The notes beneath the pieces were generated by a model, which saw only the letters and a list, made by a program, of their open reading frames with translations, had not been told where the DNA came from and searched no databases. Positions 6,752 to 61,199 of a DNA stretch of 64,000 nt are shown here, piece after piece. The first letter of the stretch is position 1. Every line of letters begins with the position of its first letter. The position numbers and the translations under genes are program-made. The stretch comes from an uncultured delta proteobacterium (GTDB lineage Bacteria > Desulfobacterota > Desulfomonilia > UBA1062): the NCBI GenBank assembly GCA_963752595.1, contig CAVVYZ010000001.1, forward strand, positions 64,001 through 128,000, read 5' to 3'.

Positions 6752-6844
6752 CCCCCCATAAAACCGACAAAACACTTTGACCCGGAAAGTTCCGGCAAAA
6801 AGAAAATCTATGGAATAACACCAGATAAAAACAAAGGAGTATTA

Positions 6845-8095
6845 ATGAAATTTGATGCATTTGATCTTCACCAGGACATTATCAGGGCCATTGCAAACAA
6901 CGGGTACGAAGTGCCGACCCCCATTCAGGCAGAGGCCATTCCATCCATACTGACAGGGCACGACCTTCTCGGCCTGGCACAAACCGGAACCGGCAAGACC
7001 GCAGCATTCGTGCTGCCGATTATCCATCATCTCATGGAAGGGCATCGCCGGTGCGTACGTGCACTGATCCTCGCCCCGACACGCGAGCTGGCTGCCCAGA
7101 CAAATGAAGCTGTAAAGCTTTTCAGCAGAGGCACCGGTCTCCGCAGCGTGGTCATCTACGGAGGAGTGGGCATGAGCCCCCAGATCGAGGCCCTGAAACG
7201 CGGCGTCGAGATCGTGGTGGCATGTCCGGGCCGTTTGCTCGACCATATTTCCCAGAAAAGGATCGATTTTTCCCGGCTTGAGACCCTCGTAATCGACGAG
7301 GCAGACCGCATGTTCGATATGGGCTTCCTTCCGGACGTCCGCCGCATCGCCGGCCATCTCCCCAGGAAGCGGCAGACACTGCTTTTTTCCGCCACCATGC
7401 CCGATGATATCCGCCACCTGGCCGATGATATGCTGCACGATGCAATTACGGTGCAGATCAGACATACGAAGCCGATTGAAACGGTATCCCATGCGCTCTA
7501 CCCGGTGGAGCACCACCTGAAGACGGCACTTTTGAGGGAGCTGCTGAAAGCCACCGATACGGATTCGGTTCTCGTATTCACCCGCACAAAACATCGCGCC
7601 GAGCGTCTTGCGCACCAGCTTACGCATGCAGGCTTCCGTGCGACTTCGCTCCAGGGCGATCTCTCGCAGAGCAAGCGCGAGAAGGCCATCGAGGGCTTCC
7701 GCAGGGGCTCATTCCAGATACTCGTTGCCACCGATATCGCTGCGCGCGGCATCGATGTTTCGGCAATCTCCCATGTCATAAATTTCGATATGCCGGATAC
7801 CGCTGATGCCTATACACACCGCATCGGCCGTACGGGCCGAGCCGAGAAAACCGGCGACGCCTTCACGTTCGTCACGCGCGACGATGCGGACATGGTCCGG
7901 ACCATTGAGAAGATCCTTGGTGAGAAACTGGAGCGGAAAACCCTGCCCGGCTTCGATTACAGCAAGCCGGATGAGAGACCTTCCCAGGCAGCGGGCCCAC
8001 GGTCCCGGCAGCATAATCCGCGCATGGCCCGCCCTGCGGTTCGCCGTTCGGAAAACCCACGATCACGCGGGGACAGGCGTATATCACAGGCATAA
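6845..8095 (+). CDS. rhlE: ATP-dependent DEAD-box RNA helicase (RhlE-like)
   Basis: Q motif PTPIQ, AQTGTGKT, PTRELA, DEAD, SAT, ARGID, HRIGRTGR and an Arg-rich C-tail; SD AAGGAG. Confidence 0.92.
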   Translation: MKFDAFDLHQDIIRAIANNGYEVPTPIQAEAIPSILTGHDLLGLAQTGTGKTAAFVLPIIHHLMEGHRRCVRALILAPTRELAAQTNEAVKLFSRGTGLRSVVIYGGVGMSPQIEALKRGVEIVVACPGRLLDHISQKRIDFSRLETLVIDEADRMFDMGFLPDVRRIAGHLPRKRQTLLFSATMPDDIRHLADDMLHDAITVQIRHTKPIETVSHALYPVEHHLKTALLRELLKATDTDSVLVFTRTKHRAERLAHQLTHAGFRATSLQGDLSQSKREKAIEGFRRGSFQILVATDIAARGIDVSAISHVINFDMPDTADAYTHRIGRTGRAEKTGDAFTFVTRDDADMVRTIEKILGEKLERKTLPGFDYSKPDERPSQAAGPRSRQHNPRMARPAVRRSENPRSRGDRRISQA

Positions 8096-38764: not shown

Positions 38765-40192
38765 GTGTCGAACCAGAAGACCCATCCCGAGCTGCTGGGA
38801 GGAAGATTAATCAAAACCTTCTATCAGATTGTCAATACCGTGAGGATTCATCAGGATAACAACCAGTTGATCAAGGAGTGTGTCTCACAGTTTCATAGCA
38901 TTATTGCCGACCTGACTGACGGCCAGGATGATGTAAGTATCCGGATCTGGCGGGGGAGATTCCACATTCAGGGAGAGAAGATCCTCTATCAGAGAGAGAT
39001 ATTTCACATTATCAATGAAATGGTGGAGTATTTCTCGCAAAGGGGAATCGGCGGGCTGAATTTTAAGTTTTCCGTGAACGATGTCTCACCAGAAGATATC
39101 GTAACCTTTGCACGCCTCCTCAACGATTCTATGAAATACGAGGATGCCCCTGAATGGCTGAACCGTCAACTGGGAGAGAATGGATTCTCCTGGATAGAGG
39201 TTTCCCGGAACCAGGAGGATAATCAGCAGGATCCTGATATGCGGCGGAAAGAAAAGGCCAGGCATGTCTACTTTCATGCCCTGAATATCGTAAAAGAGGT
39301 AGCCGAGAAAGCATCGAAGGGGATTGCGGGGGTCCGCAAGGCAAGACGTCTGGCCCAGACCATCGTGGATCTGGTGCAGGAAGACAATTCACTCCTGCTG
39401 GGCCTGGCAACGATCAGGGACTATGACGATTACACCTATACCCATTCGGTAAACGTGGCCCTGCTTGCCACGTGCCTGGGGAGATACGTAGGTCTGTCTC
39501 AGGTATTTCTTGAGCATCTTACGGTGTGCGGACTTTTTCATGATCTGGGAAAGGTCGGGGTAGCGAAAGAGATACTCCTGAAGCGTGGCGAACTGAACAC
39601 CGACGAGTGGGATAAAATGCGGAGGCACCCCCTTATCGGGGTGAGAAAGATCCTCAGGTTGAACGCTCCGCATTCCCTGCGATCAAGGATAATACTCGGC
39701 CCCTTTGAGCACCATCTTAATATTGACATGTCCGGATACCCCAAGACACATTTCATGAAGAAGCTGAGCCTCCTGGGGAAGATTCTGCGTATCGCCGATG
39801 TCTATGAGGCATTAACCTCGGAGCGTGTCTATCGTTCCAGGGCATTTACCCCGGATGAAGCCTTGAGGAGAATGTGGAGCGAGAGGGGAAAAAGCTTTGA
39901 TACAGTCCTGCTGAAAAGCTTTATCAATATGATGGGAATATACCCCATCGGTTCGATCGTGGAGCTGAATACCGGCGAAGTCGGCTTGGTGATGGAATAT
40001 CCGGACGAATCAGAAAAGAGCCTCCCGGTGATTGTACTCCTGACGGATGACGGCCAAGGCGGCCTGGCCAAAGGTGAAACGATCAATCTCGCAGCTCAGG
40101 GAATAGACGGCGGTCCCGCTCGAAGAAACATAGTCGGGGGCATTCATTTCTCCCGGCTCGGAATCCAGCCTTCGCTCCTCTTCCTCCAGTAA
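38765..40192 (+). CDS. HD-GYP domain protein (putative cyclic di-nucleotide phosphodiesterase)
   Basis: YTYTHSVNVA, FHDLGK, HP, EHH...SGYP and IADVYEALTSERVYR; SD AAGGAGG. Confidence 0.9.
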   Translation: MSNQKTHPELLGGRLIKTFYQIVNTVRIHQDNNQLIKECVSQFHSIIADLTDGQDDVSIRIWRGRFHIQGEKILYQREIFHIINEMVEYFSQRGIGGLNFKFSVNDVSPEDIVTFARLLNDSMKYEDAPEWLNRQLGENGFSWIEVSRNQEDNQQDPDMRRKEKARHVYFHALNIVKEVAEKASKGIAGVRKARRLAQTIVDLVQEDNSLLLGLATIRDYDDYTYTHSVNVALLATCLGRYVGLSQVFLEHLTVCGLFHDLGKVGVAKEILLKRGELNTDEWDKMRRHPLIGVRKILRLNAPHSLRSRIILGPFEHHLNIDMSGYPKTHFMKKLSLLGKILRIADVYEALTSERVYRSRAFTPDEALRRMWSERGKSFDTVLLKSFINMMGIYPIGSIVELNTGEVGLVMEYPDESEKSLPVIVLLTDDGQGGLAKGETINLAAQGIDGGPARRNIVGGIHFSRLGIQPSLLFLQ

Positions 40193-46371: not shown

Positions 46372-48858
46372 ATGATGGGTAAAGCAAAACTGAGTTTATG
46401 GTCTTTTTTGTTGACCGCGGGTGTCATGCTCTTCGGCATGGCTCCTATGGCATTTGCGGGAGAAGCGGATATCAAGCTGCCTGATCTGTCCACGGTGTCG
46501 TTCACCATTATGGGCAGCACGGTCGCCGGGTTATCCATTCTCTATGTCGGCTTGCTGGTATGCGTAATCGGCCTGGCTTTCGGGTACTTGCAGTACATCC
46601 AGACCAAGAACCTGCCTGCGCATAGCTCCATGCTGGCTGTTTCCAACACCATCTGGGAGACATGTAAGACATACGTCACCCAGCAGGGCAAGTTCCTCGC
46701 CGCTCTGTGGATACTGATTGCACTCTGTATCGTTTATTACTTCAAGGGGCTCCAGGGCGCACCCATTGGCAACGTCATCATCATTCTTCTCGCCTCTGTT
46801 TTGGGTATCCTCGGCTCCTACGGTGTTGCCTGGTTCGGTATCAGGATCAACACGGTTGCCAACTCCAGGGCCGCCTTTGCATCACTGAAGTCAAACCCCC
46901 TGGACATCGTGAACATCTGCCTTCGTTCCGGTATGAGCGTAGGCCTTCTGCTCGTGAGCGTTGAGCTCTTCTTCATGATCCTCATCCTCGCATTCCTGGG
47001 CGAGCTCGCAGGGCCCTGCTTCATCGGCTTCGCCATCGGCGAATCTCTCGGCGCCAGCGCACTGAGAATTTGCGGCGGTATCTTTACCAAGATCGCAGAC
47101 ATCGGCTCCGACCTCATGAAGATCGTGTTCCACCTTCCCGAGGACGACCCGAAGAACCCCGGTGTTATCGCCGACTGTACGGGCGACAACGCGGGCGACA
47201 GCGTTGGTCCCACAGCTGACGGTTTCGAGACCTACGGCGTGACCGGCGTTGCACTGATCGCATTCCTGGCCCTTGCACTGTTCGACAACCCTGAGATGGG
47301 CGGCAAACTGATCGTCTGGATCTTCGCAATGCGTATCCTTATGATCCTGACCTCGCTCGTTTCCTACTTCGTCAATGATATAATCAGCAACTCACTTTGG
47401 GCAGGCAAGAAAGACTTCGATTTCGAGCATCCGCTGACCAACCTGGTATGGATCACCTCTGGGATCTCCATCGCTGTTACCTTTGTTGCAAGCTACGTGC
47501 TCCTTTCCGACCTCGACCCGATCAGATACGGCGACCTCTGGTGGGCACTCTCCGCGATCATCAGCTGCGGTACGATTGCCGGTGCTCTGATCCCCGAGTT
47601 CACCAAGGTTTTCACTTCCACCAAGTCACGCCACTGCGAAGAGGTCGTTAACTCTTCCCGCCAGGGCGGACCTTCGCTGAACATCCTTTCCGGTCTCGTT
47701 GCCGGTAACTTCTCAGCTTTCTGGGAAGGACTCGTCATTCTGGTTCTGATGCTTGTTGCTTACCTGGTATCCAAGAACCCTTCCATCATGAACCTCATGC
47801 CGCCCGAGTTCGTATTCGCAGCCCCGGTGTTTGCCTTCGGTCTGGTGGCATTCGGTTTCCTGGGTATGGGTCCGGTAACGATCGCTGTCGACAGCTTCGG
47901 CCCGGTTTCCGACAATGCCCAGTCCATCTATGAGCTCTCCATGATCGAGTCGGTCCCGAACGTCAGTGAAGAGATCAAGAGAGATTTCGGTTTCACCCCT
48001 GACTTCAGCGGTTCCAAGCACTATCTCGAATCCTGCGACGGTGCAGGCAACACCTTCAAGGCAACAGCCAAGCCCGTGCTCATCGGTACGGCTGTCGTCG
48101 GTGCAACCACCATGGTGTTCGGCATCATCATCCTGCTCGAGAGAATCTATGGGAACGTCATTGCCAAGCTGTCTCTCGTACAGCCTGAGATCATCATCGG
48201 CCTGCTTATGGGCGGCTGCGTGATCTACTGGTTCACCGGCGCTTCCATCCAGGCCGTTGTTGCCGGTTCCTACAGCGCGGTTGTGTACATCAAGAAAAAC
48301 ATCGACCTCAGCAAGACATCCGCCTCCATCGAAGACAGTAAAGAGGTCGTGAAGATCTGTACGCAGTATGCCCAGAAGGGTATGATCAACATCTTCGTGG
48401 TCATCTTCTTCCTGGCTCTGGGTCTGGCCTTCTTCAACCCCTACTTCTTCGTCGGCTACCTCGTCTCCCTGGCCTTCTTCGGCCTGTTCCAGGCTATCTT
48501 CATGGCCAATGCGGGCGGCGCTTGGGACAATGCCAAGAAGATCGTCGAGGTTGACCTCAAAGAGAAGAACACCCCGCTGCACGAAGCGTCAGTCGTTGGT
48601 GACACGGTCGGCGACCCGTTCAAGGATACTTCATCAGTTTCCATGAACCCGGTCATCAAGTTCACCACCCTTTTCGGCCTTCTCGCAACCGAGATCGCGG
48701 TTACCATGACGGATCAGGCTGTTAAGACCGGTCTGGGAGTGGTTTTCTTCGCTGTCGCACTGGTATTCGTATACCGCTCTTTCTACAGCATGAGAATTTC
48801 CAGCGTGAAATCAGAAGAGAATGCGGAAGACAAGCCCCTCAAGGCTGCCAGCCACTAG
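46372..48858 (+). CDS. hppA: Membrane-bound H+-translocating pyrophosphatase (K+-independent, divergent type)
   Basis: GGIFTKIADIGSDL, EDDPKNPGVIAD, GDNAGD, GPVSDNA, GNTFKA, GGAWDNAKK and GDTVGDPFKDT; many TM helices; SD AAGGAG. Confidence 0.95.
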   Translation: MMGKAKLSLWSFLLTAGVMLFGMAPMAFAGEADIKLPDLSTVSFTIMGSTVAGLSILYVGLLVCVIGLAFGYLQYIQTKNLPAHSSMLAVSNTIWETCKTYVTQQGKFLAALWILIALCIVYYFKGLQGAPIGNVIIILLASVLGILGSYGVAWFGIRINTVANSRAAFASLKSNPLDIVNICLRSGMSVGLLLVSVELFFMILILAFLGELAGPCFIGFAIGESLGASALRICGGIFTKIADIGSDLMKIVFHLPEDDPKNPGVIADCTGDNAGDSVGPTADGFETYGVTGVALIAFLALALFDNPEMGGKLIVWIFAMRILMILTSLVSYFVNDIISNSLWAGKKDFDFEHPLTNLVWITSGISIAVTFVASYVLLSDLDPIRYGDLWWALSAIISCGTIAGALIPEFTKVFTSTKSRHCEEVVNSSRQGGPSLNILSGLVAGNFSAFWEGLVILVLMLVAYLVSKNPSIMNLMPPEFVFAAPVFAFGLVAFGFLGMGPVTIAVDSFGPVSDNAQSIYELSMIESVPNVSEEIKRDFGFTPDFSGSKHYLESCDGAGNTFKATAKPVLIGTAVVGATTMVFGIIILLERIYGNVIAKLSLVQPEIIIGLLMGGCVIYWFTGASIQAVVAGSYSAVVYIKKNIDLSKTSASIEDSKEVVKICTQYAQKGMINIFVVIFFLALGLAFFNPYFFVGYLVSLAFFGLFQAIFMANAGGAWDNAKKIVEVDLKEKNTPLHEASVVGDTVGDPFKDTSSVSMNPVIKFTTLFGLLATEIAVTMTDQAVKTGLGVVFFAVALVFVYRSFYSMRISSVKSEENAEDKPLKAASH

Positions 48859-48880: not shown

Positions 48881-48924
48881 AACAAGCCCCGCCCCGGTGC
48901 AGACCGGGGCGGGGCTTGTTTTAT
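48881..48924. terminator. Bidirectional Rho-independent terminator
   Basis: Perfect 18-bp stem AACAAGCCCCGCCCCGGT / ACCGGGGCGGGGCTTGTT with a 4-nt loop, between convergent hppA and the cyclase. Confidence 0.88.
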
Positions 48925-48981: not shown

Positions 48982-51255
48982 CTACTTGGTTTCAAATGTT
49001 TGAACACCTTGCCAGTCAGGCGGGGGAGGGCAGGTAAGGTAGCTCCCGATACGTTTAAGGTACAGCTCGTAGAGGCGGCAGGGATTCTTGCCGTGCAGAT
49101 CGCCGATCATCTGCCGGGCATGAACGAAATCCCGTTTCTGATATAAGTCCAGCGCTTTTTCAAAGAACTCAACCTCCTGCCTCATCTCCGGATCGGGAAG
49201 ACCCTCGACAAGAGGCTCGAAGATCTCAATGGAAACGCTCTTGCCTTTGACCTGTACGGTATCGATCTTCCGGCAGAAGAAAGCACCGTTCAGGACGTCT
49301 CTGGTGAACCGGGAAATAATGATACTCGTGCCGTAGATTTTATTCAGCCCCTCCAGCCGGGAAGCGATGTTGACGGTGTCGCCGAGTACCGTGTATTCAA
49401 ACCTGCTCTCGCTGCCGAAATTTCCGATACTGGTAAGTCCCGTGTTGATGCCGATGCCGATATCGACAGCGGGCAGGCCCTGCTGCTGCCATTTCTGCTG
49501 CAGGGTTTTCAGTGTGCGTTTCATCCGGAGTGCGGCAAGCACCCCATGACGGGCATGATCTTTATCATCCAGCGGAGCACCCCAGATGGCAACGATTGCA
49601 TCGCCGATGTACTTATCCACCATCCCGTAATTCTCCATGATGATACCGCTCATGGCTGTGAGATAGGAATTCATGAAAGCCCCGAGCCTTTTCGGGTCCA
49701 TGCCTTCGGATATGGAGGTAAAATCCCTGATGTCGCTGAAGAGGATAGTGAGCTCTTTTTCTTCTCCCGAAAGGGTGAGCCTTTCGGGCCGTTTCATGAG
49801 TTCGTTCACCACTACGGGTGAGACATAACGGTTGAACGCAGTCTGGATGAACTGCTTTTTACGTAACTCGAAGAAGTAGTTGAAAAGCGTCACCATGAGA
49901 AAGACCGTAATAATCGTTGCGAGGGGGTAGGTGATACCCAGGAGTTTGCCCTTGAGGAAGAACAGATAATAATCTCCGGTAATCATGCAGCCGATGAACA
50001 GGAGCCCGGCCAATCCCCCCGTTACTGCCCCTGTGTAGGCGAGCAGGGCGCTCAGCAGTATGCCTCCGGCAAAGATGAACGAATAGGTGAGCCCGATCTC
50101 GGTGAAGATATCATAGGTAAGAAGTGAACCTGTCAGGACGTTATCGATGATGGTGGCCTGAATCTCGACACCGGGGAATATTCCGGAAAAAGGTGTGGCG
50201 TGAAAGTCGAGCAGGCCTGAAGCAGAGGTTCCGATGAGCACGTATTTATCCTTGATACGATCAGCATGCAGCCCATCGATGACATCAGAGGCAGAGATGT
50301 ATTCAAAGGTCTTCACCGGGCCGCGGAAATTGACCATGACCTGTCCTTTGTCATCTGTGGGGATAAATGCATCTCCGACCGATACCCCGATGACGCCGTT
50401 CTTCCCCCCTGACTTCCGGCTGGATGCATGAATGACGATCTCCTGCTCCCGTGAGGCCGTCCTCACCATCTCCAGGGCAAGGGAGGGGTAGGGGATGTTT
50501 TTTAGAGACATGAAGAGCGGGACTTTGCGGACCATGCCGGATGAATCCGGGAAAACATTCAGAAATCCTTCTGTACGGGCCTGCGCAACGTCTTCGATAT
50601 TGAGGACAGCGCGGTAGCCGGATATGAGGCTCAGCTCATCATGACTGATGCCTGACGGTGATATTTTGATGGTAGCAGATGGAAAGGGAGTTTCGTTTTC
50701 ATCCTTGAGCCCGTCGTCCTCGAGCTGAAATACATATCCCAGCACAACCGGTGCTTCGGAAACAGCCCTTCCCAGCTCGATATCATGATTGAGATCCTCT
50801 CTATGCCTGATACGATCGAGCTCTTTCCCTACTTTCGCATCGGGAATGAGTTTCGAGAAATCATCTACATATTCGGCAATGGAAGTCCTGTCCTTTTCAG
50901 CAAAAACGATATCGAAACCGATGACCTTTGCGCCGGATTCATGAACGGATCTGACAAGCCGGGCCACGACATCCCGGGGCCAGGGCCACTGACCGTTTCT
51001 CTTCAGGCTCTTCTCGTCGATATCCACGATGACGACCTTGCCCGTAGCCTCGGCAGACCCGCGCCAGCGGAACATGGCGCTCGTTACCTGGTTGTCCATG
51101 GATGCAAGCAGGTCCGGCTTGGTCTTGCCGAAGGAGTAGAACAGCATGCACGAGGCAAGGATGATAAGGCACCCCATTTTGAAGGGAGAGGGCTTCAGTA
51201 TGGCGGCACGCTTATCCATCATACAGGGGATTTCAAGGCTACCGTTTCCCTTCAA
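48982..51255 (-). CDS. CHASE2-domain class III adenylate cyclase
   Basis: CHASE2 motifs VVIVDIDEKSL, GQWPWPR, IGFDIVF, DSSGMVRKVPL and PGVEIQA; 3 TM helices; cyclase motifs LFSDIRDFT, KYIGDA and EYTVLGDTVNIASRLE. Alternative start ATG 51222. Confidence 0.93.
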   Translation of the reverse strand: MKGNGSLEIPCMMDKRAAILKPSPFKMGCLIILASCMLFYSFGKTKPDLLASMDNQVTSAMFRWRGSAEATGKVVIVDIDEKSLKRNGQWPWPRDVVARLVRSVHESGAKVIGFDIVFAEKDRTSIAEYVDDFSKLIPDAKVGKELDRIRHREDLNHDIELGRAVSEAPVVLGYVFQLEDDGLKDENETPFPSATIKISPSGISHDELSLISGYRAVLNIEDVAQARTEGFLNVFPDSSGMVRKVPLFMSLKNIPYPSLALEMVRTASREQEIVIHASSRKSGGKNGVIGVSVGDAFIPTDDKGQVMVNFRGPVKTFEYISASDVIDGLHADRIKDKYVLIGTSASGLLDFHATPFSGIFPGVEIQATIIDNVLTGSLLTYDIFTEIGLTYSFIFAGGILLSALLAYTGAVTGGLAGLLFIGCMITGDYYLFFLKGKLLGITYPLATIITVFLMVTLFNYFFELRKKQFIQTAFNRYVSPVVVNELMKRPERLTLSGEEKELTILFSDIRDFTSISEGMDPKRLGAFMNSYLTAMSGIIMENYGMVDKYIGDAIVAIWGAPLDDKDHARHGVLAALRMKRTLKTLQQKWQQQGLPAVDIGIGINTGLTSIGNFGSESRFEYTVLGDTVNIASRLEGLNKIYGTSIIISRFTRDVLNGAFFCRKIDTVQVKGKSVSIEIFEPLVEGLPDPEMRQEVEFFEKALDLYQKRDFVHARQMIGDLHGKNPCRLYELYLKRIGSYLTCPPPPDWQGVQTFETK

Positions 51256-54061
51256 AGATGCCTAAATACCGGGTTCCTCCGATGCCGGCATTGAAATTGC
51301 CGCCGATGGCCTCGGCATTGGGACCATAGAAAGCACCGAAGGCGCCGTCGCCTGCCGAACCTGCAACGATATCGGCAGAGAACCCGGACAATGCTCCATC
51401 AATAGATCCATTCGTGAGCCCGATCGTGCACTCGGTAAAATTAATGGATCCGGAGACCGGGTTTGATGCGGCAGGATTGAAGTCAAATGTCAGACTGGTA
51501 ACGCCGTTAGTGAGCGGGTTCATCACGCCCAGATTATTTATGCTTACCCCATGGGCTCCTCCGGCATAAGTCCCTATGAAATCAGTTGCGATCATATTCT
51601 GGATTACCGTGGGATTCGTTTTCTCGCCGGCAACCCAGAAGGCACCGGGCTGATGAACGTGATAACTCTCCAAAATACCCGGGTCGTTATATGCTATTTC
51701 CCAGTACCCCCAGGACACATAGTCATTAAGTTGGTCTGACGGATTCGCCGTGACAAGAAAATTTGCATAGGGTTTCAGTCCCCCGGACAGGGCATATACG
51801 CTGACCGCGTCATTTCCCGTATCTCCGAGAACTGCGGCAAAGGCATCATCGAGAACATAGGCTGATCCGTGGGAGGATCCGATCTCGATATTTAAAAGGT
51901 GCACGTTCGCGTTCAGAATATCATCTGCCGAGAGCGATCCGCTCAGAATTCCCAGATCGCGATTGATACCCAGGAGGAAACCGGTGGGGTTCGTGTTCAT
52001 GAATATCCTGCGGTTCATAGGGTTGCTCATCTGTTCCGCTACTCCGACCACGAAGCCGGAAAGAGACACGATTCCCGTAGGAGAGGTCGCACTTAGGGGA
52101 TCCTGAGCCGCCCTGAGCGCTGCTCCATCAAGGCGTGATGTACCTACCCGTGAAGTCATATTGGAACTGACATCAAAGTCGTTGCCAATGCCCATAATGC
52201 CGAATCCCTGATTATCGGAGCCGTAAAACCGGCCGGAGAATATGCTTCCTTCAATCCAGGCCACGGGACCTGTCGGATCTTTTTCTTCAGGGCCTCTGCT
52301 CCCGAGGAAGCGGACATTCGTCAGAGTACCGTTTGTCCTGTCGATATCCCCGAAGAAAAAGAGAAGGCTGTCTGAATAATCCGAGCCCGGATCCGATGTT
52401 CCGGTATTGCTGAAGTCTATCAGCCCGAGTACCTTCCCGTTGAGCCAGTTGACCTCCATGCCCATGTCTCCGGCACCGAAATCTTTCCGTGCAGTGCCGG
52501 GGTCAGGGCCGATACTCTCGAATCCCAGAGCCGGCCCCTGGTAGAGATCTATCCCATTGCCACGGAGTGTCGATGCAGACGGGGCTCCAACATACCCAAG
52601 CTCGGCAAACTCATAGGTCGCTGTCTGTGTGAAACTGCTCAGTGTATTATAGAAAGCAAACTCTCCGAGCGGGTCCGATATGATCTTCCAGGTAAATGTC
52701 CTGTCAGATCCCAGGAGGTTTATTGTATAGGGCAAGGAATATGTCTGGATGCCGGTAGGTGCATAGGTTCCGCCAGGATTGCGGGGGGAAATTGAAAACG
52801 AGAAATTGTATGCAGTGCCGCCCGGTGCAGTCAAGGTACAGGCAACGAGACCTGCTGTAGAAGTTGCGGTCAGGCTCTCTGAATACGAGAGGTTGTTATT
52901 GGTATTCCAGTAGTTATCTATATCGGCAAGTCCACTCATGCTTGCACCGGACATGGCAATCCCCGGGATTGATGCCAGGTCCTGAACGGTGGTTGCCAAT
53001 CGATCCTGGGATAGTGTGTCGGACCCGGTGACGGTAGAGACAGGATTTGTGCTGCTCGGAATCGGGGTCGGCTCAAAAAACGGCTCACTTATGGTAAATT
53101 GTCCTTCAAGGCCGCTTGCAGCAGAAGAAGTATCGCCGGGCTGAGTGGTGCCTGCTGCGACGAAGGTAGACAAACCGGTTTCTGCATCTCCTCCTTGGAC
53201 TGGCTGAGTCTGATCTCCGGTACCGGCCCCGGCATCCGATGCGGTCTGTTCGCTGCCACCGGATGACTGATCTCCGGTGCCGCTTTGCTGTTCCGCATGA
53301 GACGTTATGGAACCGGACTCGCCTTCGCTGCCGGAACTGCTCACGCCGGTCTGGTCTTGAGTTGTGGAGCCCCCGTCTCCACCCTGGGCAGGGGCAGCTG
53401 CTTCATCTTCTTCGGTCTGACCGTCCACGGACAGGTCATTGTTGATGCCGGATACATCCTGGGTGCTGACCCGTGCGGGCTTTTCCGGCAGGGTATCCTG
53501 GCCCTGGATGCGTGTCCCGAAACCGGGGCGTGTGATTGACATCTCGCCTGTATCATTCACAACATAGATGCCCTTTCCGCCTTCAAACACTACACTGAGT
53601 GTTCCTTTCTCAACCCTGCCGGCATACATGGAGCCTCTGATCCCGATGGTGGCGGCCGGAGTCTCGGTGGTGAAGGTTTCGGGAGAGTCTTTGGCAATGG
53701 CACCGCCCATCACGCGGAAAACGCCTTCCTTGACCTTTGTTTTCATCGTCCCGGTCTTCCGGTCAGGGTTCCAGATGTGCTCGATTATCTCCATCCGGCT
53801 TTCCTTGCCGAGGCTTACGATGGTATTGTCCGAGAAGAGGACTTGTACTCTTCCCTGGGGGCCGGTCCTGAGAGTGTCGCGCCGGAATACGGGGCTTTTG
53901 ATGCTGAGTTCCCTTGTGACTCCCCGTGTATCAAAGGCAGTAACCTTGCCGCGGATCGCAATGACAGATCCGACCTGATCACCTTCCTGCGCTAAGGCGA
54001 GCGGCACCCCGGATATGAGCAGGGACGAAAAGGCAAATAGAAGAAATATTTTCTTTCTCAT
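51239..54061 (-). CDS. Secreted FecR-domain protein with low-complexity linker and C-terminal TbpB-like beta-barrel repeats
   Basis: Sec signal peptide; FecR motifs DTLRTG and TPAATIGIRGS; Gly/Ser/Gln/Thr linker; GRFYGSDNQGFG, VSWGYW and GAFYGPNAEAIGGNF...GIFEGKR. Confidence 0.8.
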   Translation of the reverse strand: MRKKIFLLFAFSSLLISGVPLALAQEGDQVGSVIAIRGKVTAFDTRGVTRELSIKSPVFRRDTLRTGPQGRVQVLFSDNTIVSLGKESRMEIIEHIWNPDRKTGTMKTKVKEGVFRVMGGAIAKDSPETFTTETPAATIGIRGSMYAGRVEKGTLSVVFEGGKGIYVVNDTGEMSITRPGFGTRIQGQDTLPEKPARVSTQDVSGINNDLSVDGQTEEDEAAAPAQGGDGGSTTQDQTGVSSSGSEGESGSITSHAEQQSGTGDQSSGGSEQTASDAGAGTGDQTQPVQGGDAETGLSTFVAAGTTQPGDTSSAASGLEGQFTISEPFFEPTPIPSSTNPVSTVTGSDTLSQDRLATTVQDLASIPGIAMSGASMSGLADIDNYWNTNNNLSYSESLTATSTAGLVACTLTAPGGTAYNFSFSISPRNPGGTYAPTGIQTYSLPYTINLLGSDRTFTWKIISDPLGEFAFYNTLSSFTQTATYEFAELGYVGAPSASTLRGNGIDLYQGPALGFESIGPDPGTARKDFGAGDMGMEVNWLNGKVLGLIDFSNTGTSDPGSDYSDSLLFFFGDIDRTNGTLTNVRFLGSRGPEEKDPTGPVAWIEGSIFSGRFYGSDNQGFGIMGIGNDFDVSSNMTSRVGTSRLDGAALRAAQDPLSATSPTGIVSLSGFVVGVAEQMSNPMNRRIFMNTNPTGFLLGINRDLGILSGSLSADDILNANVHLLNIEIGSSHGSAYVLDDAFAAVLGDTGNDAVSVYALSGGLKPYANFLVTANPSDQLNDYVSWGYWEIAYNDPGILESYHVHQPGAFWVAGEKTNPTVIQNMIATDFIGTYAGGAHGVSINNLGVMNPLTNGVTSLTFDFNPAASNPVSGSINFTECTIGLTNGSIDGALSGFSADIVAGSAGDGAFGAFYGPNAEAIGGNFNAGIGGTRYLGIFEGKR

Positions 54062-54081
54062 AGCTTTCTCCCCATTTTCTC

Positions 54082-55434
54082 TTAAAATCCGATCGATATG
54101 TTTGCGGAGGCCACGTTCTTTGTGTAGGCGTAGAGGTCGATGTTGGAATCGGATCTTGTGTAGGTGTAGTTGAGGTTGAGGTCCATTCTATAATCAAAGG
54201 GTTCGGACTTCCAGATAGAGAGCGTCTTGGAGAGGCCTGCCGAGAGGTACTGCACATCATCATCGCGTTTTTTCCCGAACAGGGGGTAGACATCCTTATA
54301 GCCCGTACCCTGGTACCAGTAGCTTATGTAGACAGTAGCCTCATAAGGGAGCCTCACTTCATAACTAGAGATGCTGGTGAGCTTCGTATACGTGTTGACG
54401 TCTCTCCGGGCGTTTTCATATTCCCAGCCAAGGCTCCACGACAGGCGGTTCCTGCCGAAAATGAAAACAGGCGATAAAGCCAGGCCGACATTTTTTGCGT
54501 CCTTGTCGCTGCTCTCAAAATAATTCTTGGTCTTGAATTTGGCGTCAAAACTGACGAGGAAAGATGGAGTTACCGCAAAACCCAGGGTCGTTCCCGCGCC
54601 GTAGGTGCGAAGGTATTGACGGTAATCCTGGTTCAGGTGGTTCGTAAGGCCGTAGATGTCCCACACAACCCTGCCCCTTCCGATGCTGGCACCGGCTTTG
54701 ATATCGAACAGGTTCACATCGAGGTCCTTTGCATCCCGGTAGACCGCGTTGTAATTCAAACTCGAAAACTTCCAGGAAACGGTGCTGTCCAGAGGCCTGT
54801 AAAGATAATTGAGGTTCGCCATGCTCGTGTATATCTGGTCTTTTTCAGGCCGGTCCACTGTCACGGTGATTACCTCGCCAAGGGTGGTGTTAATTCCGAT
54901 ATCCGAGTTTGTGGGCGCTGCATTCACGTTGTCATCAAAATCCAGGCCCAGCGATAACTTGCCGGAAAGGAAGTGCTCTTTTTTCGATTGCCTGATAGCT
55001 TTGATGTATTGATTGATATTTGAGCGCACATTCTCCGGGGGGTTTACGGCGAGAACTTCCTGGAAGTATTGCTCGGATGACTCGAGCGATCCGAGTTTGT
55101 AATAGCTCCTGGCGATCTCGAGCTTTGCCCGCACCGCATCGGGCCTGTTTATCAGTACGCGCTCAAAGGCCATGATCGCTGCTTCGTAGTCTCCGGTCTC
55201 AAAGGCTGCCCTGCCGAGGTTGAAATTGATGTCCGGATCCCCTGGATCCTGCCGGAAAAGCTCAAAATATGATTCAAAAGCCTTGTCAAACTCAGCCTTG
55301 TCGAAGTGATCTTTTGCCAGGTCTCTTAAGGCCGGGTCCACGGAGTCCGCTCCCAAGACAGGGGAAAGAGGAATGCTTACTGAAAGGACAGATAAGATAA
55401 AAGCCGTGATGAAGACAGGAAGAGTCTTCCGCAT
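54082..55434 (-). CDS. TPR + outer-membrane beta-barrel protein (Slam/DUF560-like, type XI secretion)
   Basis: Signal peptide; TPRs (FNLGRAAFETGDYEAAIMAFERVL, RAKLEIARSYYKLG); barrel start GLDFDDNVNAAP; C-terminal YTRSDSNIDLYAYTKN...ISIGF ending in Phe. Confidence 0.8.
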   Translation of the reverse strand: MRKTLPVFITAFILSVLSVSIPLSPVLGADSVDPALRDLAKDHFDKAEFDKAFESYFELFRQDPGDPDINFNLGRAAFETGDYEAAIMAFERVLINRPDAVRAKLEIARSYYKLGSLESSEQYFQEVLAVNPPENVRSNINQYIKAIRQSKKEHFLSGKLSLGLDFDDNVNAAPTNSDIGINTTLGEVITVTVDRPEKDQIYTSMANLNYLYRPLDSTVSWKFSSLNYNAVYRDAKDLDVNLFDIKAGASIGRGRVVWDIYGLTNHLNQDYRQYLRTYGAGTTLGFAVTPSFLVSFDAKFKTKNYFESSDKDAKNVGLALSPVFIFGRNRLSWSLGWEYENARRDVNTYTKLTSISSYEVRLPYEATVYISYWYQGTGYKDVYPLFGKKRDDDVQYLSAGLSKTLSIWKSEPFDYRMDLNLNYTYTRSDSNIDLYAYTKNVASANISIGF

Positions 55435-55601
55435 GATCGTTTTCACATACTCATAGGAATGCAAACGGTTAATTTGTATACTTGACTGAAAGATAGGCTC
55501 AAACACTTTTTTCCCTCCCGTACATCCATCATCGTCAGGGGAGAGGAAAAATGTGAGACCCTTTTACTCGGAACCGGGTGAATCGTTCTCAAGACCTCCG
55601 G

Positions 55602-56099
55602 TCAGATCTTGTTGAGAAACTCCAATGCCTGTTTCAGCCTTGAGAATTCAGTACTCGTCATACGCAGCCGGTGGGCCAGTATCTCTGCAATGAGCCGGTA
55701 ATAGACCGCTTCAAACTCGGTGCGGTCCTCGTGCTCCAACCGGTCGAGGAATGCGCCGTCTATGGCAAGGCAGGTGGTGTTGTCCGTAACGGCATAGACA
55801 GAGGCAGACCGCGCTTCCCCGTCGATGACGGAAAGCTCGCCGAACGTTCCGCCCTGGGCGTCGAGCCGGGCAATCTCCTCTTCGTTCTTGACCACCTTCA
55901 CCTCACCTGAAAGGATTACATACAGCCAGCTGTCATATTCGCCCTGCCTGGTGATGACTTCCTCTGCCTGGTATCTCCGGAGCTTGCTCAACTCAAGGAT
56001 CTTCTTGAGGAACTTGTCTGCGTAGGAATTGAGAAAGGGGATTTTCTTCAATGTCTCGATAAGATCGTCCCGTCCTTTCAGATAGCGGGATTCCTTCAT
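55602..56099 (-). CDS. Stand-alone cyclic nucleotide-binding domain protein
   Basis: LKKIPFL, ITRQGE, LYVILSGEVKV and phosphate-binding cassette FGELSVIDGEARSASV; no HTH; SD GGAGG before ATG 56099. Confidence 0.88.
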   Translation of the reverse strand: MKESRYLKGRDDLIETLKKIPFLNSYADKFLKKILELSKLRRYQAEEVITRQGEYDSWLYVILSGEVKVVKNEEEIARLDAQGGTFGELSVIDGEARSASVYAVTDNTTCLAIDGAFLDRLEHEDRTEFEAVYYRLIAEILAHRLRMTSTEFSRLKQALEFLNKI

Positions 56100-56482: not shown

Positions 56483-57820
56483 TTACCCCGGCAGAATCTT
56501 CCTGCACTCCAGATAGAACCGCTTCTCGTCGGCATGGCCCATGGAGAAGGTCTTCCGCGGCAGCACGCCGTCTTTGATGATGGTCCTGAAAAAGTCGAAC
56601 TTGGAAATCGCGGGCAGGAAGAACCCTACGGTATCCGGCCGTGAGGCGAGGTCGTTCACGATCTTCTCCCCGTGGATGTAGTCGATCCTGATCCCCGTAT
56701 CCTTGATGTACTCGTCGAGGAACGACTGGAGGGTCCCCACTTCGAGGGTGAGCTTCGGATTCCGGATGGAAATCGTACCGCACGAGGACTTTGTTACGAA
56801 CGAAATCCGGTGGGTATCGGGGAGCTTCGAGGGAATGGTCTGAAGCGCATCGGTTGTATCGCACATGCTCACGGAGAAGGTCGAGCCCTGGGCGGTATAA
56901 TATGATTCCATGCGTTTCAGCATGTCATCGGCAGGGCAGTTGAACACAACGCGGTCAATGGGCTCGAAGGTGAGCGCTTCGTCGTGAAGATTGACCAGTT
57001 CCACAAGTGCGTACCGTGCCGGATGCTTCATGACGGCATCAGTGCCGGCCGCATCCCTTTTGAGCTTTTCCCAGATCTCCTTTGCCGTGGCCAGAGAATG
57101 GTTTCCGTCTCCCATGGCATAGAGCAGGACATTGCGGTCTTTGGTCTGGTACTTTTCCTGGAAGACATCCGGATCGGCCAGTTCAGCGAGCGCCTCTGCT
57201 ATCCCGGCGAGCGTTTTTTCGCCGTTTGCCAGGTATCCTCTGATGTGCCCGCTTCCTTCCATGAGATCGAAGTCATAGACCTTTTGCAGCCCTTTTTTGA
57301 AAAGGGGCTCGATTACGGTTTTCCCGGGGTCATCGATGAGCACCATGATATGGGGAGACTCGATGGGCGCCCCCTGCCGGATCTTTATCCTGGGAGGCAG
57401 CCTGTCGATGACCGTGCCCTCGGTCGCCCGGATGAGGCTCTTGGAGCCTTCCCGGAAATCGTAGCGTTCGAGGTCGAGGGCCACCACCAGCCCTTTGCGC
57501 GAGCTGCCGTGGCCGGTAGCCCTGTCCACGAGGATGAACCCTGACCGGCAGGGCACGAGGATATTTCGGTTGAGGTATTCCTCCATGTTCTTGTTGATCT
57601 TCCGGGCTGCCTCTTCAGAATCGCACTCCTCCAGGTAGGCCTCAGGGAGGATGATATGGAAGGTGGAGGGGCTCTGACCCACGAAATCCCTCACCCGTTC
57701 CCAGTACTCGGGCTGGGAGGTGTACTGGTCGCACGCAACCACTGCCCATTTCGTGAGGTCCGCGCCCTCACGGGGCAGCAGGATTTCAGGCACGAGGAGG
57801 CCGATATTATCGAACAGCAT
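56483..57820 (-). CDS. DUF1015 family protein
   Basis: WAVVACDQYTS, IRATEGT, YAMGDGNHSLATAK, DYIHG and LPRKTFSMG. Confidence 0.85.
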   Translation of the reverse strand: MLFDNIGLLVPEILLPREGADLTKWAVVACDQYTSQPEYWERVRDFVGQSPSTFHIILPEAYLEECDSEEAARKINKNMEEYLNRNILVPCRSGFILVDRATGHGSSRKGLVVALDLERYDFREGSKSLIRATEGTVIDRLPPRIKIRQGAPIESPHIMVLIDDPGKTVIEPLFKKGLQKVYDFDLMEGSGHIRGYLANGEKTLAGIAEALAELADPDVFQEKYQTKDRNVLLYAMGDGNHSLATAKEIWEKLKRDAAGTDAVMKHPARYALVELVNLHDEALTFEPIDRVVFNCPADDMLKRMESYYTAQGSTFSVSMCDTTDALQTIPSKLPDTHRISFVTKSSCGTISIRNPKLTLEVGTLQSFLDEYIKDTGIRIDYIHGEKIVNDLASRPDTVGFFLPAISKFDFFRTIIKDGVLPRKTFSMGHADEKRFYLECRKILPG

Positions 57821-57849: not shown

Positions 57850-58464
57850 TTACAGATTGATCTTATTGTATCCGTCGGCCAGGGAGGTATTCACGTGTAC
57901 CACGTCTTTGTTCAGGTCTTTGAGCGGATAGTCGGCAGTGATGGCCGGGAGCCTGTCCGCGTCTTCCTGCTTTTTGAGCACGGTCCCGGCAGGGACAATC
58001 CGGCCGTCCGGCACATGCACGCCCATGACGATGCAGCCGGGCTCGATTACGCAGTTGCTGCCCACCTCTGCTTTGAATACCAGGGACTGCATGCCCACGA
58101 ACGAATCATCTCCCACAGAGGCGGGGCCGTGGATCTGGACCTGGTGAGCAAGCGACACCCGCTTGCCGACATAGACCGCGTACTTCCTGCCCTGGACTTC
58201 CACGAGATGCTTGTCAATCGCATGCCCGTTATGCTCCGTCTCGAGGGCGTGAAGGACTACGCCGTCCTGGATGTTGGCTTCGTCTCCCACAAAAATGGGC
58301 TGCCCTTCGTCGCCGCGAATGGAGGCAAAGGGCGATACCATCACGCGTTTTCCCACCGACACGTTTCCTATGACTGCCGAGAGAGGGTGAATATAGGCGC
58401 TGGGGTCGATAACCGGTGTGTATCCCTTCCCGCAGAAATCGGTGATTACATTCTTATGAATCAT
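57850..58464 (-). CDS. Gamma-class carbonic anhydrase (Cam-like)
   Basis: Hexapeptide repeats; SIRGDEG, NIQDGVVLHALE and LAHQVQIHGP supply the three His metal ligands. Confidence 0.9.
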   Translation of the reverse strand: MIHKNVITDFCGKGYTPVIDPSAYIHPLSAVIGNVSVGKRVMVSPFASIRGDEGQPIFVGDEANIQDGVVLHALETEHNGHAIDKHLVEVQGRKYAVYVGKRVSLAHQVQIHGPASVGDDSFVGMQSLVFKAEVGSNCVIEPGCIVMGVHVPDGRIVPAGTVLKKQEDADRLPAITADYPLKDLNKDVVHVNTSLADGYNKINL

Positions 58465-58613: not shown

Positions 58614-61199
58614 CTATTCCGGGACCAGTACCAGAACTTTCCGGTACTGCTTCTCTATCCTGTCGTCCGCAAAGGGAAAGCTCCGGTAATCACCTTTGAG
58701 CCATGCATGGATTCCGTCATCATAGTAAGGGCTCGAAGGGTTGTCGCTCTGGCCCGTGCTGTTTATGACAAAAACAGGCTCTTCCAGACTGAAATCCACT
58801 ACCAGGCGCATGGCCGGGATCAGCCAGGTATTGAAATCCTTGCCGATCATGTATGCGGAGATATTGGGCGTGGTAAAGTCACCCGGAGCGGGGAAGGGGC
58901 CCCGGTTGAAGTAGGAGTTTAAGAAAGATAGGCCTGCCCTTTGAACGAAGTCAAGGTTTGGAGCCATCCTGCACGATTCGGTCACGAAATCATACGTGTG
59001 GAACTTTCCCCAGGTCCAGGCATTGCGGTTTTTCCCCAGACTCTCTTCAATAAGCACGATGGACTTTGCCAGAGCCCGGGCGATGATCCGGGCCTTGGTC
59101 TCCTGCACAGAAGTCGTGGTGTCGTCCCAGAACGGGCTTTCATCCCCCCTGACGATGAGGTGGTCCGATGTGGCGTTGTAGCTCATGGAGTTGCACGATA
59201 CGAAGGCCTTCCAGGTGGGAGAGGTGGTCGGGCCCAGCTCGTCGAGGAAAATCTCCCTGGTCAGGGTATTAATGAAGGCCCCCATAATGACCGCGTTTCG
59301 GGAATGGACGCTTAAGTCCCCATCGAATTCCCTGATCATGGCGAGGGCTTCACGGGCTTTCTCTTTCACGCTCTCGTCCTGCCAGGAATCTATCTCGGAG
59401 GCGATGGGGCGGGAGAGGTCTCCTTCGAGCAGGACCTTTCTGATGGCCGGAAGGGACGATGTATGCGTATCGAGCTGAATATCCTTGGAGGTCTTCGCTG
59501 TATGGTCCTTGGTTGCTTTGATCATTTCCACAATGCGGTCTATCCGGTCGGGCCAGTACCATGATGATGAGAGGATATGGGGGTAATCGGCGCCGACGGT
59601 CTTATTGTTGGCAGTGGCGATGTACCCCTCCGGAGGGTTCAGAGAACAGGGATACTTATCGACAGAGAGGAACCCGTTCCAGTCGTACTCTCCTGTCCAG
59701 CCCGGGGAGGGCATGAGTCCGCGGCCGCTCTTGCGGACGGGATAGCGGCCCGTGACCTGCCATGCGATGTTCTCCTTGTCCGCGACAACCATATTCAGCG
59801 CCATGATCTGGATCCGCTTCAGGATAGGGACGGCCTCATCGACAGACTCCGCGGTCAACAGTGAGAAGAAGGCATCCAGACTTTTGTCTTCCGGCTCGAA
59901 AGCTGCCCATGAAAGGGCAATGCCGTAGGGAAGCTCGACAGGATTCGACATGAATGGATTCTTAGGCGGGCGCTTCAGGATATCATTGAGCAGAGGTCCG
60001 TGGATGGTCTCCTGGACAGTGATGTGTACGGGCTCGTAGCCGCGGACGATAAAGGTCTCTTTCCGCTGGGTAACCGGCAGCCATGATCCTTTATAGAGAT
60101 AGCTCATTTTCCCGTCCGTTGTTTTAAGCTTTTCGAGAAAGAGGTCCTGGTTGTCGGCCATAACCATGGTCATACCCCAGGCTATATGCCCGTTATACCC
60201 TGCCACGATGCCCGGCAGCCCTGCCGCGCATACCCCTGCTGCATCAAGGCCGTTGCAGCGGATATGCATCATGTTCCACAGGGAAGGGAGCGTCAGCAGA
60301 AGGTGGGTATCGTTTGCAAGGATGCTTGCCTTGCGTTCTGTCATCCCCTTGGCCACAGCCCAGTTGTTGGATGACGCTATGCCGGTGAGCCCCAGCGCGG
60401 CGAGTATATCATCCGCAGCAATTGTTCCTTTCAGGCTGGAAAGCGTCCCTTGAAGATCCAGGCCTTTCAGCTTCCGAGCCTCGTCCAGAGGGAGGGGTTC
60501 ATCCGGGTGGATGGGCATGAGCCAGGCTGCCTTTTCAGTGCCCACTGCCTTGGCCAGGATAAGGGATTCCGTTTCTTCATGCATATTGAAGGACAGGGCA
60601 AAATTCACGAGGGCAAGGATGCTCATGGAATCCATGGGCACCCACTTCTCGGGTTTGTATCCGCTCATGGCGAGCTCGGGGGGGAGCTTGTCGCTGTGCT
60701 GCTCGATATATGCGTTCACCCCTTGCGCATACCGGCCGAGGAGAATCTTGTTTTCCTGCGACAGCCCGTCAAAAAGGATGCGGGCGGACTTTGAGAGGTT
60801 CAGCGTGCGCATGAAGACGTCGATATCAAGTGCAGGCTTTCCCGCCATCTCGGAGAGCCTCCCCTGCGAGAGGAGCTTGATCCCGACCATCTGGGTAAGC
60901 CTGTCCGAAGCATTGACATAGCCTATGGCGAAGGAAAGGTCCTGCATATCAGAAGCTTCGATGAAGGGGATGCCCATGTCGTCACGGCGTATGGTGATCT
61001 GGCTGTGAAGCCCTTTCATGGACAGCTGACCTTCCATGACAGGAAGGGTGTCCGAGTAATGGGAGTTGAGCATGCGCGTGCAACCCCCGGTAATGAGAAC
61101 CGCTGCCGAAAGCAAGGCCGGGAGGAGCATCCGGTTCAGCTGTGATCCAAGGCATACGCTTCTTTTCCACACAAAGGGCCGGATATTCAATACCTTCAC
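58614..61199 (-). CDS. Penicillin acylase family Ntn-hydrolase (AHL acylase QuiP-like)
   Basis: IRRDDMGIP, DRLTQM, SNNWAV (N-terminal nucleophile Ser), LANDTHL, TANN and GQSDNPSSPYYDD. Confidence 0.9.
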   Translation of the reverse strand: MKVLNIRPFVWKRSVCLGSQLNRMLLPALLSAAVLITGGCTRMLNSHYSDTLPVMEGQLSMKGLHSQITIRRDDMGIPFIEASDMQDLSFAIGYVNASDRLTQMVGIKLLSQGRLSEMAGKPALDIDVFMRTLNLSKSARILFDGLSQENKILLGRYAQGVNAYIEQHSDKLPPELAMSGYKPEKWVPMDSMSILALVNFALSFNMHEETESLILAKAVGTEKAAWLMPIHPDEPLPLDEARKLKGLDLQGTLSSLKGTIAADDILAALGLTGIASSNNWAVAKGMTERKASILANDTHLLLTLPSLWNMMHIRCNGLDAAGVCAAGLPGIVAGYNGHIAWGMTMVMADNQDLFLEKLKTTDGKMSYLYKGSWLPVTQRKETFIVRGYEPVHITVQETIHGPLLNDILKRPPKNPFMSNPVELPYGIALSWAAFEPEDKSLDAFFSLLTAESVDEAVPILKRIQIMALNMVVADKENIAWQVTGRYPVRKSGRGLMPSPGWTGEYDWNGFLSVDKYPCSLNPPEGYIATANNKTVGADYPHILSSSWYWPDRIDRIVEMIKATKDHTAKTSKDIQLDTHTSSLPAIRKVLLEGDLSRPIASEIDSWQDESVKEKAREALAMIREFDGDLSVHSRNAVIMGAFINTLTREIFLDELGPTTSPTWKAFVSCNSMSYNATSDHLIVRGDESPFWDDTTTSVQETKARIIARALAKSIVLIEESLGKNRNAWTWGKFHTYDFVTESCRMAPNLDFVQRAGLSFLNSYFNRGPFPAPGDFTTPNISAYMIGKDFNTWLIPAMRLVVDFSLEEPVFVINSTGQSDNPSSPYYDDGIHAWLKGDYRSFPFADDRIEKQYRKVLVLVPE

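Follow-up and report, generated by a model that had tools for sequence, protein, structure and literature searches.

Can a secretion pore, the protein that it exports and a cyclase of the inner membrane together carry a signal from the cell surface into the cell? This question is raised by a locus of an uncultured delta proteobacterium (Desulfobacterota), at positions 48,982 to 56,099 of the 64,000-nucleotide stretch of DNA that we analysed (hereafter, the window: assembly GCA_963752595.1, contig CAVVYZ010000001.1, positions 64,001 to 128,000). A first-pass annotation, made from the letters alone, had described there four co-directional genes, encoding a protein that binds cyclic nucleoside monophosphates (cNMP), a Slam-like outer-membrane protein (OMP), a Sec-exported protein with a FecR domain and TbpB-like barrels (hereafter, the cargo) and a CHASE2 adenylate cyclase, and had proposed that they relay surface signals into cyclic AMP (cAMP). 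All four open reading frames (ORFs) are indeed present, each on the minus strand, and the spacing of at most 20 nt given for the Slam-like, FecR and cyclase genes is confirmed: the OMP stop precedes the cargo start by 20 nt, and the cargo stop either overlaps the TTG start of the cyclase by 17 nt or lies 16 nt ahead of its ATG at 51222. The cNMP stop is separated from the GTG of the OMP gene by 95 nt. We found that the core unit consists of three genes (Slam OMP, cargo and cyclase) rather than four, and that this trio is a real, conserved and apparently undescribed variant joining two known systems.

The trio was traced in a cargo-side survey of GTDB, in which the best 80 of 150 confirmed relatives gave 79 loci, annotated with profiles of the window's proteins. 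Sixty-three of them hold a head plus barrel (including L054 and L064, whose split cargo ORFs look like frameshifts), 11 hold heads cut by contig ends, one is an N-gap artefact and four have complete heads without lobes; these loci are related and were chosen by cargo similarity, and the fractions that follow are not independent trials. A Slam gene stands directly upstream of the head-plus-barrel cargo in 59/59 loci (four with less than 500 nt of flank were dropped), and a CHASE2 gene directly downstream in 56/57 (six dropped; the exception is L021). The complete order Slam, cargo, cyclase, on whose conservation the first-pass annotation had made its proposal depend, is found in 53 of the 54 loci with both flanks. 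The cyclase gene lies within tens of nucleotides of the cargo gene in most loci, and the genes flanking the trio differ freely. All 59 head-plus-lobe cargo proteins with Slam upstream carry the C-terminal barrel, which is absent from the four complete heads without Slam; these four adjoin neither a Slam barrel nor CHASE2, and three of them belong to a TolC/HlyD/DUF4347 operon. The contig-end-cut heads have Slam upstream in 11/11 cases. No TonB receptor and no sigma-70 or extracytoplasmic function (ECF) sigma factor was detected among the 82 of 120 neighbour-cluster representatives scanned (E <= 1e-12), in agreement with the earlier description of the locus. An apparent fusion of FecR, CHASE2 and cyclase in L039 was produced by a scaffold gap filled with N and was excluded from the counts.

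In the source assembly (4.1 Mb, 84% complete), tblastn returned one match each for the OMP barrel, the head, the lobes and the CHASE2 domain, and domain searches one SlipAM and one TbpB_B_D match. Since the OMP and the parts of the cargo have single matches in the genome, the two look like a dedicated pair.

The fourth gene, which had been put forward as the dedicated effector, did not hold its place. It is adjacent and co-directional in 9/59 Slam loci, and in 11 genomes of the same genus the cNMP gene is present in 10/11 and an intact trio in 4/11. Moreover, genomes of this genus differ in how far the cassette has been lost: three deletions break all three core genes in G002 (L094, C55), G011 (L224, C215) keeps an intact Slam gene with cargo and cyclase lost together, and G003 (L229, C189) retains a remnant of 42 cyclase codons. 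G001 and G009 have no trio at the locus, and in G010 the contig ends there. Because the cNMP gene is intact in all six of these genomes (G001, G002, G003, G009, G010 and G011), where the trio is lost, broken or off the contig, it is not tied to the cyclase. We therefore rejected it as an obligatory member and regard it as an accessory, clade-restricted neighbour. Its product is a stand-alone domain (Pfam cNMP_binding, 57 bits) with a GE...RSA cassette, in whose 165 residues no helix-turn-helix was found, and is a possible cAMP effector. The cNMP-domain matches in the genome number seven, spread over six proteins of which two have the size of Crp.

The OMP scored 39.5 bits against Pfam PF04575 (SlipAM; cut-off 22; model positions 6-280 of 288), with tetratricopeptide repeats (TPRs) matched as well, and the six orthologues tested all passed the same cut-off. 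Its best matches in the Atlas are SlipAM clusters (0.97-0.98). A hydrophobic signal segment at residues 27-54 (hydropathy profile) is followed by TPRs at about 60-160 and a beta-barrel at about 179-474 that ends in Phe, as the first-pass annotation had stated. The 14 strands expected of a Slam-like barrel were recovered as amphipathic strands, by eye, in a hydrophobic-alternation profile of 63 orthologues and not in a three-dimensional model; an automatic peak count of this profile was noisy (19). TPR proteins were among the PDB matches listed in a sequence search, and a profile search at E 1e-30 gave designed TPR proteins only. The OMP family of T11SS (type 11 secretion system) is marked by 14 strands, by TPRs and by cargo that ends in an eight-stranded barrel (PMC8406197). 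Based on its domain matches, the OMP is a member of the Slam/DUF560 family, and translocation of cargo is its predicted function.

The cargo was modelled by AlphaFold with an alignment of 130 sequences (mean predicted local distance difference test, pLDDT, 84), and an earlier single-sequence fold (pLDDT 32) was discarded. The model consists of a head (residues 25-213), a disordered stretch (214-343) and all-beta modules up to the C-terminus. A profile of the cargo family matched TbpB, NHBA and hemophilin at its C-terminus and 5IX9, the anchoring domain of the adhesin MpIBP, at its N-terminus. Searching 1.84 billion representatives with a cargo profile gave 947 matches at 1e-30, many of them through the head alone, and an Atlas search gave FecR clusters only. 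When residues 360-940 were used, 36 proteins including the query were retrieved, with FecR in 34 and PF01298 in 23. Most relatives that have a name carry the label Deltaproteobacteria or Desulfobacterota, and the closest of them are Syntrophaceae. No match was obtained in a plasmid search with the cargo.

Sec export of the cargo, claimed at first pass, agrees with its N-terminal hydrophobic stretch (residues 4-25, hydropathy profile), beyond which no further hydrophobic segment occurs. No lipobox was seen among 43 aligned cargo N-termini, which by eye look like type I signal peptides. The head that follows is the best-conserved region of the cargo, was modelled with pLDDT mostly above 90 and scored 37.8 bits against Pfam PF04773 (FecR; cut-off 24; residues 62-161). 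In VIA-align it matched PupR (Z 16.1) and BDI_1681 (Z 15.2), over only about 140 residues of a periplasmic region of about 215 in those proteins. The head thus shares the periplasmic fold of the FecA-FecR-FecI and PupB-PupR-PupI systems. Unlike FecR and PupR, it comes directly after the signal peptide and has neither a cytoplasmic sigma-binding (anti-sigma) domain nor a membrane anchor, and the neighbours scanned include neither a TonB receptor nor an ECF sigma factor. We rejected a classical anti-sigma reading.

The same head is related to a second, separately studied module. Its residues 27-123 superpose on 5IX9 with Z 11.6 and a root-mean-square deviation of 2.0 over 75/76 residues (29% identity), and the two are also linked by sequence (E 4e-7); the match to NCBIfam retention_LapA is weak (23 bits, cut-off 50). 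In MpIBP this domain is described as a plug in the periplasm whose size stops it from passing TolC and which keeps the adhesin on the cell (PMC5550230). The Gly-Ser of the head motif R142-G143-S144 (window 53630-53638) is invariant in 43/43 aligned cargo proteins; among 82 heads the last position is Ser in 78 and Thr in 4, and heads from most other contexts carry Thr. Given that the FecR-family domains of FecR and FoxR cleave themselves at Gly-Thr (PMC12036975, PMC9249621), Gly143-Ser144 could be a self-cleavage site, kept or disabled.

Between head and lobes runs a tether of about 140 residues (pLDDT below 50 at 214-259 and 262-343), which across the aligned orthologues holds few Lys/Arg and is either acidic or rich in Pro. 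By a rough, alignment-based measure, the tether of forms that lack the first handle has a median length of 88 residues among 25 proteins (minimum 42) and of 110 among 46 (minimum 29). The C-terminal part is modelled as two lobes, with handle and barrel at about 368-495 and 500-653 in the first, and at about 661-815 and 816-940 in the second. TbpB and LbpB ranked first in Foldseek (E to 1.6e-12). In VIA-align, residues 368-653 matched the TbpB C-lobe (Z 15.4) and hemophilins, 661-940 matched fHbp (Z 12.0) and HpuA, and 770-940 NHBA (Z 13.4); the Z of the lobes against hemophilins was 10-11.5. We conclude from the model that the lobes share the folds of T11SS cargo (TbpB, fHbp, NHBA, hemophilin), in line with the TbpB-like barrels named at first pass. 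Of the domain searches suggested then, those for SlipAM, FecR and CHASE2 exceeded their cut-offs; TbpB_B_D did not (17 bits, cut-off 26), and the barrel is supported by the profile and structure searches instead. A reading with three barrels was dropped, as VIA-align resolves two handle-plus-barrel lobes. Among loci the lobes vary in number, and they diverge fastest of all cargo parts. Cargo proteins enlarged to 1171-2052 aa, in several of which the barrels are repeated, occur in L021, L029, L050, L053, L062 and L081, and two tandem cargo genes accompany one Slam and one cyclase gene in L032 and L063.

The third product matched Pfam CHASE2 (207.7 bits) and Guanylate_cyc (80.4 bits). An N-terminal transmembrane segment, a periplasmic CHASE2 domain (39-378), hydrophobic helices (about 383-464) and a catalytic domain (499-673) make up its layout (Pfam, hydropathy). 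The KYIGD and EYTV motifs picked out at first pass were located at K548-D552 and around T622, and D508, K548, D552, T622, N629 and R633 are invariant in 43/43 aligned orthologues. We take these residues to be the two metal-binding Asp (D508, D552), the substrate-binding Lys548 and Thr622 and the transition-state Asn629 and Arg633; by the class III rules as we understand them, Lys548 and Thr622 point to ATP as the substrate. As judged from its sequence, the protein is an intact class III enzyme of the inner membrane, most likely an adenylate cyclase. Three other class III cyclase matches were found in the genome. What CHASE2 domains sense is described as unknown (PMC5192318).

We also surveyed the cyclase side, using the 80 best of 587 metagenome matches and, from 121 genomes of the phylum, the 40 strongest CHASE2 matches (the phylum count rests on these 40 and leaves aside 20 weaker loci). 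Counts refer to loci with 3 kb of upstream DNA and, owing to the narrow profiles used, are lower bounds. A FecR head lies within 4 kb of CHASE2 in at least 11/40 and at least 12/33 loci, and the TbpB-type trio occurs in at least 1/40 and at least 0/33. Heads near CHASE2 are thus commoner than the trio, which appears as one branch of a wider head-CHASE2 pattern. It is mainly because this pairing recurs that we infer an action of the head on CHASE2.

The pairing takes several forms. One recurring unit, seen in L102 (7027-10125), L225 (4688-7864), L186, L191, L194, L201, L204, L206 and L212, combines a FecR head of about 150 aa, a protein of about 200 aa that belongs to the OmpA family wherever it was scanned, and a CHASE2 protein that lacks a cyclase domain and in L102 is of the HD type. 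In L114, L115 (6980-9866), L148 (7021-9797), L156 and L159, membrane-anchored FecR heads stand directly upstream of CHASE2 cyclases. The neighbours in these loci look archaeal, with FttA identified by Pfam and with N-termini that resemble those of EF-1alpha, proteasome and pilin proteins; such loci look like a head-CHASE2 pair without an outer membrane. L165 encodes a FecR head fused to TPRs in an NsrA-like protein. L089 (7559-18144) carries two convergent modules, a TbpB-type trio and a second set of FecR, TPR-barrel-like and CHASE2-cyclase genes; the FecR protein of the latter has a low-complexity tail, and a gene resembling class II phosphodiesterases lies upstream. Separately, many metagenomic CHASE2 cyclases (in L110, L112, L121, L126, L131, L132, L139, L147, L150 and L151) share downstream genes, namely one of about 255 aa for a metallo-beta-lactamase phosphodiesterase-like protein and one for a cNMP-rhodanese protein (cluster representatives scanned).

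The closest functional parallel comes from Sinorhizobium meliloti. The gene abutting cyaK in the pSymB record encodes a 1197-aa protein with FecR at 66-160 and TPRs, which we take to be NsrA. Over 169 columns its head aligns with the cargo head at 28% identity (hhalign probability 95.6), and against the Slam profile only its TPRs align, the barrel does not. Our cyclase is 29% identical to CyaK over 656 columns. Perception of a protein signal in S. meliloti needs both the outer-membrane NsrA and the CHASE2 cyclase CyaK (PMC7529298, PMC13001267), and NsrA-dependent activation of CyaK has been published (PMC7529298). Given this precedent, which the first-pass annotation had missed, a relay across the envelope into cAMP that uses neither TonB nor an ECF sigma factor is not new in itself. 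The trio resembles the NsrA-CyaK (CyaD1/D2)-Clr system in that an outer-membrane signal would be relayed to a CHASE2 class III cyclase of the inner membrane, and in that a FecR-head gene directly precedes the cyclase gene. It differs in that NsrA is described as a single outer-membrane barrel protein with loops facing the medium, whereas barrel and head of the trio belong to separate proteins, the barrel being a Slam-family secretion pore and the outward part a TbpB-like bilobe; in addition, the cassette has no Crp-type gene.

With T11SS (TbpB, LbpB, fHbp, HpuA, NHBA, hemophilin/HrpC, Pls) the trio shares a TPR-plus-SlipAM barrel beside a Sec-exported cargo, and lobes made of a handle and an eight-stranded barrel, two of them as in TbpB. 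In contrast to the TbpB-type surface lipoproteins, this cargo has no lipobox anchor and is yet probably retained, and its partner is a cyclase, with no TonB receptor among the scanned neighbours. The accessible part of PMC12282271 does not list an N-terminal FecR head among the T11SS cargo architectures surveyed; CHASE2 is absent from its supplements, in which FecR co-occurs 201 times with cluster 1 OMPs, and neither FecR nor CHASE2 occurs in the supplements of PMC8406197. The layout of the cargo also recalls the retention module of T1SS (type I secretion system) adhesins (MpIBP RIN, LapA), with the plug fold and the sequence of periplasmic plug, spacer and surface domains. Unlike those adhesins, the cargo has a Sec signal peptide, a Slam pore in place of TolC/HlyD/ABC and no Pfam match to the RTX family, and its head is about twice the size of the T1SS plug. 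Finally, a cluster in Campylobacterota combines a CHASE2 adenylate cyclase with FecR-domain and TPR proteins and has been proposed to form one pathway (PMC9239204); unlike the trio it includes a phosphodiesterase, and in the accessible text it is described without a link to Slam/T11SS or TbpB lobes. We found no published description of the Slam, FecR cargo and CHASE2 trio, and no paper on a retention module combined with FecR, in a literature search whose coverage mostly excludes subscription journals.

From the domains, predicted folds, catalytic site and gene order described above, we infer export, stalling and a contact between head and CHASE2, and we give even chances to a model in which the trio acts as one surface-to-cAMP relay, a split analogue of NsrA-CyaK, with the cargo tethered in the pore and the head controlling the cyclase. 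The cargo, devoid of a lipid anchor, would be exported by Sec, and the Slam protein would recognise its C-terminal barrel and pass both lobes unfolded to the surface; Slam moves unfolded cargo only, as shown for TbpB (PMC9090332). The FecR head would fold in the periplasm and, like the T1SS adhesin plug, be too big to follow, so that the tether would keep the cargo spanning the outer membrane. Mobile on this tether, the head would touch the CHASE2 domain, and a ligand or a pull at the lobes would shift it between the cyclase and the TPRs of the pore, changing the cAMP output. The cNMP protein would be an optional effector, Crp-like proteins being encoded elsewhere in the genome. Threading and the FecR-CHASE2 contact, both suggested at first pass, are strengthened by the homology to the retention plug and by the presence of the same head upstream of cyaK. 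More tentatively, and with somewhat greater reserve, we propose that a T11SS was repurposed as a receptor assembly around a stalled cargo, the FecR head being both a plug and a general ligand of CHASE2, of shared origin with T1SS retention and hung on interchangeable anchors (Slam cargo, NsrA-type barrel, OmpA partners, archaeal membrane helix).

Several observations weigh against the relay. The contact between head and CHASE2 is a prediction, and the FecR-domain protein SMc02177 of S. meliloti is an output of cAMP/Clr, dispensable for signal perception (PMC5498481). Known T11SS cargo processed by signal peptidase I is released as soluble protein (PMC8406197). Tethers of 29-49 residues, found in 2/25 and 2/46 of the short forms, may not be long enough to span the outer membrane and still extend to the inner one. 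At L021, Slam and cargo occur without a cyclase. Furthermore, in L059 (324-13567), L060 and L074 (7321-19349) the same FecR head stands beside TolC/HlyD/DUF4347 genes, with no CHASE2 found at the locus; these operons encode a TolC-like OEP, a small TPR protein, a giant DUF4347 protein and HlyD-type/M50 proteins, the head is short-tailed and lobeless, and it may there serve a second secretion system. The joint losses speak for the relay, but single deletions remove adjacent genes together whatever their function. Also in its favour, the head distance matrix of 37 loci follows those of the Slam barrel (r 0.85), CHASE2 (0.83) and the Slam TPRs (0.81) more closely than those of its own lobes (0.75, 0.53); partial r values of 0.32 and 0.19 cannot separate Slam from CHASE2 as partner of the head, the loci being non-independent kin.

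Part of this evidence would suit other explanations. The cargo might be fully secreted, or shed after cleavage of head or tether, with the head on CHASE2 only while the cargo is periplasmic, so that cAMP would report the state of export and not an outside ligand. A type I signal peptide without lipobox, as in released T11SS-1B cargo (PMC8406197), the occurrence of short tethers and the invariant Gly-Ser, at an apparent match to the FecR-family self-cleavage motif, would all fit. We nevertheless consider this unlikely, since the head, a domain of 190 residues modelled with confidence, is related to a known retention plug, and the variation of the lobes is as expected of ligand-binding parts. 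Alternatively, a plug-held surface adhesin or binding protein might be the output of the pathway, co-regulated with a cyclase that senses otherwise through CHASE2 and is not contacted by the head. The homology of the head to the MpIBP/LapA-type module, its presence beside T1SS-like genes without CHASE2, the rarity of the trio among CHASE2 loci and the precedent of SMc02177, a Clr target and not a sensor (PMC5498481), are in favour of such an output. What makes it quite unlikely in our view is that the cyclase follows close behind the cargo in one fixed order, and that heads without an adhesin part (those of about 150 aa with OmpA proteins, and the membrane-anchored ones) also adjoin CHASE2. 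Lastly, there might be no export at all. The OMP would then serve as a receptor or a channel, and all 940 residues of the cargo would remain in the periplasm, binding a ligand and linking the pore to the cyclase. Secretion has been shown for only seven T11SS OMPs, which all belong to one cluster, and those of marine cluster 3 are rarely paired with barrel cargo (PMC12282271); G011, moreover, has an intact Slam gene and no cargo that we could find. We hold this to be very improbable, given that the C-terminal barrel is a shared mark of T11SS cargo (PMC12282271, PMC8406197) and that it is present in every head-plus-lobe locus with Slam and missing from the heads without it.

If the relay is true, both the use in signalling and a plug-based, lipid-free retention at the surface would be new for T11SS; to our knowledge, all tested T11SS cargo serves nutrient capture, adhesion or immune evasion. 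The FecR head would be a candidate protein ligand of CHASE2 domains, and its contact with them would explain how NsrA reaches CyaK. In addition, the link between the folds of the FecR domain and the adhesin retention plug joins two envelope modules that have been studied separately.

Features of the locus, in window coordinates.
Feature	Position	Strand	Remarks
CHASE2 cyclase	48982-51255	-	757 aa from TTG; alternative ATG at 51222
Cargo, FecR/barrel protein	51239-54061	-	940 aa
Cargo residues 1-213: type I signal peptide and FecR-type head (25-213)	53423-54061	-	RG-S motif at 142-144
Cargo residues ~214-355: disordered tether	52997-53422	-	acidic, Ser/Thr/Gly/Pro-rich, Lys/Arg-poor
Cargo residues ~356-940: two TbpB/fHbp-like handle-plus-barrel lobes	51239-52996	-	
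OMP (Slam/DUF560)	54082-55506	-	474 aa, GTG start, ends ...ISIGF
cNMP-binding protein	55602-56099	-	165 aa, ATG with GGAGG ribosome-binding site
Intrinsic terminator-like hairpin	48881-48920		bidirectional, 18-bp stem; between cyclase and convergent H+-pyrophosphatase gene

The G+C content of the locus agrees with that of the remaining window, and no RNA holder is listed for the region. The flanking genes are ordinary by Pfam (H+-pyrophosphatase, DUF1015, a hexapeptide-repeat protein, a member of the penicillin amidase family and an HD-domain protein; spans 46372-48858, 56483-57820, 57850-58464, 58614-61199 and 38765-40192). At one of the surveyed loci, L046, a group II intron reverse transcriptase gene (6201-7637) lies just upstream of the Slam gene.

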